Shown here: in pieces, positions 15,126 through 15,162 of the stretch | How positions within the stretch are numbered: position 1 is the stretch's first letter | How the letters are laid out: the number at the start of each line of letters is the position of its first letter | NCBI GenBank assembly: GCA_045657945.1 | Contig: JAZOUB010000041.1 | Span: 43,987 to 107,986 of the forward strand | Length of the DNA stretch: 64,000 bases | Direction: 5' to 3' | From: Bacteroidaceae bacterium | Lineage (GTDB): Bacteria; Bacteroidota; Bacteroidia; Bacteroidales; Bacteroidaceae | Position numbers and translations under genes: made by a program | Notes under the pieces: generated by a model | What the model saw: the letters and a program-made list of their open reading frames with translations, nothing else | What the model was told of the DNA's origin: nothing | Databases searched by the model: none

Positions 15126-15162
15126 CAAATGTAACTCTTTTAAAATAAATTACCCCCCCCCC
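15126..15162 (-). promoter_or_regulatory. Putative promoter: -7 box TACATTTG, 19-nt spacer, G10 tract
   Basis: The plus strand reads CAAATGTA(15126-15133)-19 nt-C10(15153-15162). The ATG of the downstream gene is at 15096. The box matches the Bacteroidota TAnnTTTG consensus. Confidence 0.5.

Follow-up and report, generated by a model that had tools for sequence, protein, structure and literature searches.

Does a run of ten G residues upstream of a small lipoprotein gene act as a mutable spacer that tunes its promoter? The question is raised by a G10 homopolymer on the minus strand (C10 on the plus strand) at 15153-15162 of the 64-kb stretch of DNA analysed here (64,000 nt, hereafter the window). 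The tract is real DNA in the window, which derives from an uncultured ruminant-hindgut Bacteroidaceae bacterium; the best GTDB species representatives are only 82% identical to its C10 family cysteine peptidase. On the minus strand the order is GGTTTTAACACCTTTTAACCAATC, G10, the A/T-rich 19-nt spacer TAATTTATTTTAAAAGAGT (15134-15152), TACATTTG (15126-15133), 29 nt and the ATG at 15096, just as the original prediction described it. TACATTTG is a predicted −7 box: it matches the Bacteroidota sigma-A consensus TAnnTTTG and stands at a suitable distance from the lipoprotein ATG. The consensus is used as quoted in PMC7366714, the −33 motif being weak in global TSS maps. A direct repeat, TTTTAAC-ACC-TTTTAAC (15168-15184, minus strand), is located 5 nt upstream of the G run and is found again at a second promoter of the window as well as at the orthologues of both. 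Counted from the predicted start of an internal promoter of sigma-A type, which would serve the 81-aa lipoprotein gene, G10 falls at about −33 to −42.

The lipoprotein gene (14851-15096, minus strand) encodes the signal peptide MKKIFGTLALALCLTAMVSC followed by a predicted three-helix domain. Its AlphaFold model is a three-helix bundle with a mean pLDDT of 79, comparison of the model with the PDB gave no significant match, and the protein belongs to no Pfam or NCBIfam family. A strong terminator-like hairpin lies 3' of the gene (14797-14834, minus strand). Immediately upstream of the promoter is the C10 peptidase gene (15203-16174, minus strand), and upstream of the latter a 102-aa lipoprotein paralogue of 35% identity (16248-16556, minus strand), whose promoter is an ordinary TTG-N16-TATTTTTG without a G run. 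The stretch from the stop codon of the C10 gene to the ATG of the lipoprotein gene contains no terminator. Hence the G10 promoter would be an internal promoter of a possible operon.

The two paralogues flanking the C10 gene belong to a family of small lipoproteins (80-107 aa) with an almost invariant signal peptide (MKKIFGTLAMALCLTAMVSCGG) and 5' UTR and a variable three-helix mature domain, an arrangement that recalls variable lipoprotein families. They may be partners or inhibitors of the C10 protease. Directly upstream of the lipoprotein-C10-lipoprotein cluster a tmRNA gene is located (16767-17164, minus strand), the sole match in an Rfam scan of the window. Two of the four longer metagenomic contigs (L001, L004) end within about 1 kb of this gene, and the C10 loci of related species are devoid of both lipoprotein genes. 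Possibly, therefore, the three genes form a small island next to ssrA.

The original prediction took the 3' end of the G run for the G of a −33 TTG element. This assignment is rejected. A canonical −33 TTG is absent from the focal promoter, where the position reads GGGG and only the final G matches. Among 98 predicted promoters of the clade the spacer between TTG and −7 box has its mode at 20 nt (17/98) as compared to 19 nt (5/98), and at one of the promoters discussed below the distance between run and box ranges from 19 to 25 nt among orthologues. In the same 98 promoters G makes up 4-10% at logo positions −40 to −34, which are A-rich, and about 13-33% across the ten positions of G10. Two other candidates were dropped. 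A sigma-54 or ECF reading of the upstream AAC/GGCAC motifs does not fit by inspection of the spacings. An inverton at the focal promoter is rejected for want of convincing flanking inverted repeats, the surroundings containing one 14-nt, 79%-complementary A/T-rich pair (15098-15111 / 15140-15153).

The remainder of the window was searched for similar tracts. Only three G/C runs of at least 7 nt exist in the 64 kb, namely the focal run (10), 35784-35790 (7) and 61578-61590 (13). All three are G on the minus strand, are intergenic and end with their 3' edge exactly 19 nt before a TAnnTTTG octamer. The two strands of the window together contain no more than 52 such octamers. This bears out the recurrence that the original prediction had reported at 35757-35790 and 61551-61590. 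At whole-window composition about 4 G/C runs of at least 7 nt would be expected per 64 kb, ~0.06 of at least 10 and ~0.001 of at least 13; at an assumed 30% GC, ~0.03 runs of at least 7 would be expected per 10 kb. The coding DNA of the window holds no G/C run of at least 7 nt, and no other G-rich 10-mer was found in its intergenic promoter contexts. The occurrence of G runs at these promoters is real and non-random. With slippage expected from a length of about 8 for G/C, G10 and G13 are long enough and G7 is borderline.

The second run (locus 2) precedes the −7 box TACATTTG at 35757-35764, upstream of the gene for a 586-aa secreted protein (33957-35717), and is itself preceded by the direct repeat TTTTAAC-ATT-ATTTAAC (35796-35812, all on the minus strand). 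It shares with the focal promoter (locus 1) the plus-strand core GCAAATGTAACT, as predicted. Both loci follow the same cassette, that is TTTTAAC-N3-TTTTAAC, 5 nt, G box, 19 nt and −7 box, with a promoter similarity of z about 8-9. Loci 1 and 2 thus represent one shared promoter cassette and are not independent cases. Further copies of the cassette were found neither in the window, nor in about 1 Mb of loci, nor in IMG/VR, and a comparison with plasmids gave no match either; an occurrence of the cassette in phages or mobile elements is rejected on the latter two grounds. The third run (locus 3) precedes the −7 box TATTTTTG at 61551-61558, upstream of the gene for a 1310-aa M60 peptidase (57521-61453, minus strand). 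Its 19-nt spacer contains an A10 run (61561-61570, minus strand), which gives the M60 promoter a second tract prone to slippage; in the orthologues its length lies between A6 and A10.

Inverted repeats bracket the promoters of loci 3 (61401-61419 / 61654-61672, 19 nt, 84%) and 2 (35596-35608 / 35754-35766, 13 nt, 92%). In both pairs one arm lies in the signal-peptide coding region and the other coincides in part with a box of −7 type; at locus 3 this box belongs to the predicted promoter of a divergent gene. These repeats may be chance matches of CAACCTTTGC / ACATTTGCGT motifs. The divergent gene encodes a protein of about 1270 aa (MRKNLFLTLALAFAGFAGANAQ...), starts at 61814 on the plus strand and runs off the end of the window. 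Its predicted promoter, TTG-N20-AACCTTTG, falls within a block (61640-61690) that is conserved in all M60 orthologues.

The products downstream of the G-run promoters carry signal peptides. The original prediction had regarded them as linked to the type IX secretion system (T9SS), and this is borne out as far as genes for exported proteins lie downstream, whereas the T9SS C-terminal domain itself is not confirmed. No Pfam or NCBIfam match to a Por_Secre_tail or TIGR04183-type domain was obtained with the whole proteins or with their last 80-100 residues. The C10, 586-aa and M60 proteins share by eye a C-terminal motif, ...DLxGRxV...GIYIxNGxKxLVK, that resembles T9SS sorting domains. Moreover the window encodes a 2460-aa protein (2068-9450, minus strand) whose C-terminus matches the T9SS translocon protein SprA/Sov (TIGR04189).

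For the focal locus, eight metagenomic contigs encode an identical lipoprotein behind promoters that are otherwise nearly identical to that of the window. Their boxes read GGGGGTGGGG (n=2), GGGGGGTGGGG (n=2) and GGGGGAGGGG (n=4). The perfect G10 is found only in the window sequence, all eight other contigs showing interrupted boxes of 10-11 nt (G5TG4, G6TG4, G5AG4). The three forms are real alleles, as every one of them goes together with a particular set of SNPs in the flanks. Another Bacteroidaceae species with a 45%-identical lipoprotein has the homologous promoter TATTTAATATTATTTAAC-AATTC-GAAGGGAGGGA-N16-TACATTTGC...TTTTAAAATTTATAACTATG, in which GAAGGGAGGGA carries an internal A at the position of the interruption. 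Together with the interrupted boxes this makes the perfect G10 a derived state of a conserved G-rich box. The ancestral box is accordingly G-rich, about 10-11 nt long and with an internal A, and the G10 of the window derives from it by one substitution. Hence the claim of a slippage-prone tract stands in so far as lengths differ between strains at all three promoters, but at the focal locus the perfect run belongs to the window alone. In its behaviour the focal element is closer to a G-rich box under conservation than to a hypermutable tract that is kept up, and frequent switching of the focal gene is plausible only in strains with the perfect G10. In one contig (L003, about 1505-2985; ENA ERZ28633686) an IS3-family element, recognisable by its HTH_Tnp_1 and rve ORFs, has entered the promoter downstream of the TTTTAAC repeat and upstream of the G-rich box, splitting the lipoprotein gene from the C10 gene and the upstream repeat.

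At locus 2 the orthologues (89% protein identity) show TTTTAAC-N3-TTTTAAC-TAAAT/C, a G run, the identical 19-nt spacer and TATTTTTG. The run is G7 in the window and in L096, G9 in L102 and L103, and the 2-nt difference between L096 and L102 is the sole indel in 976 aligned nt. In a more distant species the orthologous intergenic region contains a C7 on the coding strand immediately 5' of ATTAAYACATTTTAAC (L020, 2907-2913; L034, 2236-2242), that is, a tract beyond the direct repeat and on the opposite strand. The −7 box is located there about 32 nt downstream of the ATTAAYACATTTTAAC repeat with no run in between. Other species thus have a G:C tract at the same promoters too (L020, L034, L097).

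Locus 3 varies as well. As compared to G13 at 19 nt from the −7 box in the window, we observe G10 at 20 nt in L094, whose M60 protein is 97% identical, G8 at 22 nt (L095), G9 at 23 nt (L088), G8 at 24 nt (L089), GGGGAGGG at 23 nt (L090), G8TG4 at 20 nt (L093) and G6 at 25 nt in three near-identical samples (L104-106). The runs include the interrupted forms G4AG3 and G8TG4, and L107 has no run at all, so that a distance is not applicable. The fixed distance of exactly 19 nt in the original prediction therefore holds for the three runs of the window and for the cassette of loci 1 and 2, but is not a rule. The suggested regular step of three between the lengths 7, 10 and 13 is a coincidence, other strains giving 6, 8, 9, 10, 11 and 13. 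The M60 peptidase itself is very polymorphic between strains (78-97% identity).

Tract length differs between strains at all three promoters. Judged from these alignments, such a change in the length of a G:C run between strains is a signature of slippage. The overall spacing is seemingly less free to vary. At locus 3 the run measures 0 to 13 nt, yet its 5' edge is always found 30-33 nt from the −7 box; the corresponding value in L107, without a run, is 32 nt. From the direct repeat to the −7 box it is 31-35 nt at loci 1 and 2, and also in the species without an intervening run (L020, L034, L097). As the upstream element or direct repeat is held at 30-35 nt from the −7 box whatever the filler, selection seems to act on the spacing, which slippage in the run would disturb.

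The geometry, the shared cassette and the length polymorphism between strains are observed, and from them we infer a mechanism in which promoter-proximal G:C homopolymers are mutable spacers tuning the transcription of genes for surface and secreted proteins. We consider it the best supported explanation, at somewhat less than an even chance. G10 would be the uninterrupted form of a conserved G-rich box of ~10 nt that fills the gap separating the core promoter from the direct repeat TTTTAAC-N3-TTTTAAC further upstream; the cassette is used again at 35757-35812. TACATTTG would be an active promoter whose activity the upstream repeat aids. Replication slippage would add or remove G:C units in the gap. 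As the run would keep its 3' edge in place with respect to the −7 box, the upstream A/T-rich element would shift by 1 bp (about 34 degrees of helix) per unit, so that each gain or loss would move it relative to RNA polymerase. A length change would in this way displace the TTTTAAC direct repeat or A-rich DNA against the −7 box, which for the TTTTAAC sequence had been foreseen correctly by the original prediction. If tract length alters output and switching is frequent within a population, the G run would be a heritable, reversible dial on the transcription of these genes, similar to the T-tract rheostat of Helicobacter pylori sabA.

Several observations count in favour of the rheostat: all three G/C runs of at least 7 nt are intergenic and 19 nt from TAnnTTTG; lengths differ at locus 2 (G7 vs G9), locus 3 (G13 vs G10 in L094) and locus 1 (G5TG4 vs G6TG4); overall spacing is constrained, the G content at the G10 positions is atypical, the products have signal peptides, and viral contigs show an excess of similarly placed runs as well as a phage family with such a run (see below). 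Against it stand the eight contigs in which the focal box is interrupted and of near-constant length. Classical contingency loci keep perfect repeats. The flanking DNA of the strains compared differs by 2-6%, so that the changes in length may have occurred only rarely and need not reflect hypermutation. The three near-identical samples all have G6, though a short run is expected to be stable, and L107 indicates that the run is dispensable at the M60 promoter. In addition, ~790 kb around C10 peptidase genes of related Bacteroidales contain 42 G runs of at least 6 nt, none of them within 40 nt upstream of TAnnTTTG. A design general in the family is rejected by this absence. The rheostat interpretation is plausible and partly supported overall, and it is weakest at the focal locus, from which the question arose.

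A more far-reaching version would have ruminant-gut Bacteroidaceae use G:C homopolymers as slipped-strand rheostats on −33/−7-type promoters of secreted mucin-type peptidases and variable small lipoproteins, the first SSR-based phase variation in Bacteroidales, with the strain of the window having newly made a switch by the one substitution that fused G5 and G4 into G10. We regard this as rather doubtful.

Instead of a spacer, the ~10-nt G-rich box could be a site that is touched, together with the TTTTAAC repeat, by a transcription factor or by sigma/RNA polymerase, the homopolymer being incidental and its length variation tolerated noise. The focal locus accords well with such a contact, as the box is 10-11 nt and G-rich in every haplotype, the other species retains a homologous box with an A at the place of interruption, and loci 1 and 2 have the direct-repeat cassette in common. 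Direct repeats spaced about 10 bp are typical of activator sites, and the spacing here is ~10 bp. A bound box is difficult to reconcile with locus 3, where the run ranges from absent (GGGATGTG) to 13 nt, and with the more distant species (L020, L034) whose tract lies beyond the repeat on the opposite strand. The lack of further cassette copies in the window, in ~1 Mb of loci and in IMG/VR likewise speaks against it, and no candidate factor was found. Altogether we consider a contact site unlikely.

Alternatively the runs are neutral by-products: slippage would expand short runs wherever frameshifts are harmless, that is in intergenic DNA, without any regulatory role. Zero coding G/C runs of at least 7 nt as compared to about 4 expected window-wide would fit purging from genes and tolerance outside, and indeed runs appear, become interrupted and vanish among strains and are missing in most relatives. 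Against this, position is highly non-random, with 3/3 runs at 19 nt in the window and every orthologous run at 19-25 nt. Nor does neutral expansion account for the recurrence of a G:C tract at the same promoters across species, for an overall spacing that stays constant despite changes in run length, or for the about two-fold excess at 19-20 nt in viral contigs. We thus rate neutrality as quite unlikely. If the tracts were inert after all, they would still call for caution, as long homopolymers would accumulate at fixed promoter-proximal positions.

A last possibility, that assembly or base calling has produced the perfect G10 and G13 of the window from truly interrupted sequences (G5TG4, G8TG4), is very improbable. 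Loci 1 and 3 are each one T-to-G change away from an interrupted relative, both times at position five of the box as counted from its 3' end, and an identical change at two places might point to a systematic error. However, perfect runs of 7-10 nt were recovered for loci 2 and 3 by independent assemblies (MEGAHIT, SPAdes, JGI and NCBI), the interruptions follow the linked SNP haplotypes and are hence real alleles, and L093 also differs from the window in its flanks.

The closest known counterpart of the proposed rheostat is H. pylori sabA, where the length of a T-tract beside the −35 element sets how UP-like elements are aligned axially with the core promoter (Aberg et al. 2014, PMC4081817). 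In both cases a homopolymer of strain-variable length is located directly upstream of the −35-equivalent with A/T-rich DNA beyond and a surface protein as target, and a change in length would turn the upstream element around the helix axis with respect to the core promoter. In contrast to sabA the tract is G:C and not T, the predicted promoter is of the Bacteroidota −33/−7 type, and the focal tract is interrupted in most strains. G:C homopolymers of ~10-15 nt in promoters cause graded expression of outer-membrane proteins in Neisseria meningitidis (opc, porA) and Bordetella pertussis (fim). They lie in or overlap the −35 region, or are located between an activator (BvgA) site and the core promoter or −10 element, and these species keep perfect tracts across strains. 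The run of the window differs by ending at the −33 position and extending upstream from there.

The Vlp lipoprotein family of Mycoplasma hyorhinis has a poly-A tract in its promoters. It resembles the lipoproteins described here by small size, a near-invariant signal peptide and 5' region, a variable mature part and a promoter homopolymer. Other than in Vlp, only one of the two window paralogues has a G box, there is no tandem gene array and there are no repeats in the mature proteins, and phylum and promoter type are different. The Vlp family is among those listed in a 2025 review (PMC11868660), which attributes phase variation of Bacteroides to invertases and names SSR systems for other phyla only. 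The statement of the original prediction that Bacteroidales are known for invertase-driven switches agrees with this review. With the invertons of Bacteroidales the G-run promoters share the TAnnTTTG box and a potentially variable expression of surface molecules; the focal promoter differs in lacking flanking inverted repeats of the inverton type, and the proposed change is slippage and not site-specific recombination. No homopolymer or SSR promoter switch was found for Bacteroidales, Bacteroidetes or Prevotella in the open-access literature searched. If G tracts tune transcription, they would offer a second, cheaper route to surface heterogeneity in gut Bacteroidales, one that inverton-finding software would miss and short-read assemblies would blur. 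The focal locus may then show the birth of a contingency tract by a single substitution that fuses two short runs. The comparison bears as well on the poorly defined −33/upstream region of Bacteroidota promoters, where the spacing is apparently constant while the sequence is free to change.

The occurrence of such runs beyond the window was evaluated in IMG/VR by counting G8+ runs at fixed distances before TAnnTTTGC in viral contigs, dereplicated into families. There are 17 families at 19 nt and 15 at 20 nt versus 11, 3, 10, 4 and 10 at 14, 17, 22, 24 and 28 nt, respectively. The excess at 19-20 nt is modest, about two-fold. One phage family (43-45% GC; L116, L137, L142, L185, L187, L192, L199, L266, L283) is an independent case: at an orthologous site a box reading TACTTTTGC or TATCTTTGC is preceded at 15-20 nt by a run of G8-G12, to which AGGGG is often appended, and L187 has an adjacent G18 tract. 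A variable G run abutting a Bacteroidota-type −7 box is thus not unique to this genome. Furthermore about 80 gut-phage contigs (L224-L299) share a GC-rich, probably coding site, ccggaa-G9 or G10-atcaagttcccgtaagTATGTTTGC, where the G9/G10 polymorphism could shift a reading frame.

A further class of repeats was noticed in the intergenic regions of the window. Arrays with a 9-nt period (CTAAGGNNN / CCCTTAGNN) form long imperfect palindromes at 32984-33101, 35810-35892 and 61478-61525. Similar arrays are located at 41151-41187 and 45483-45524, and also upstream of the 598-aa gene in L096 and L102. The 9-nt-period pattern has 13 matches in the window as compared to 2.6 expected. These arrays may be terminators, insulators or MITE-like elements. 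Their copy number differs greatly between strains, and one of them lies in the M60 5' UTR in some strains only.
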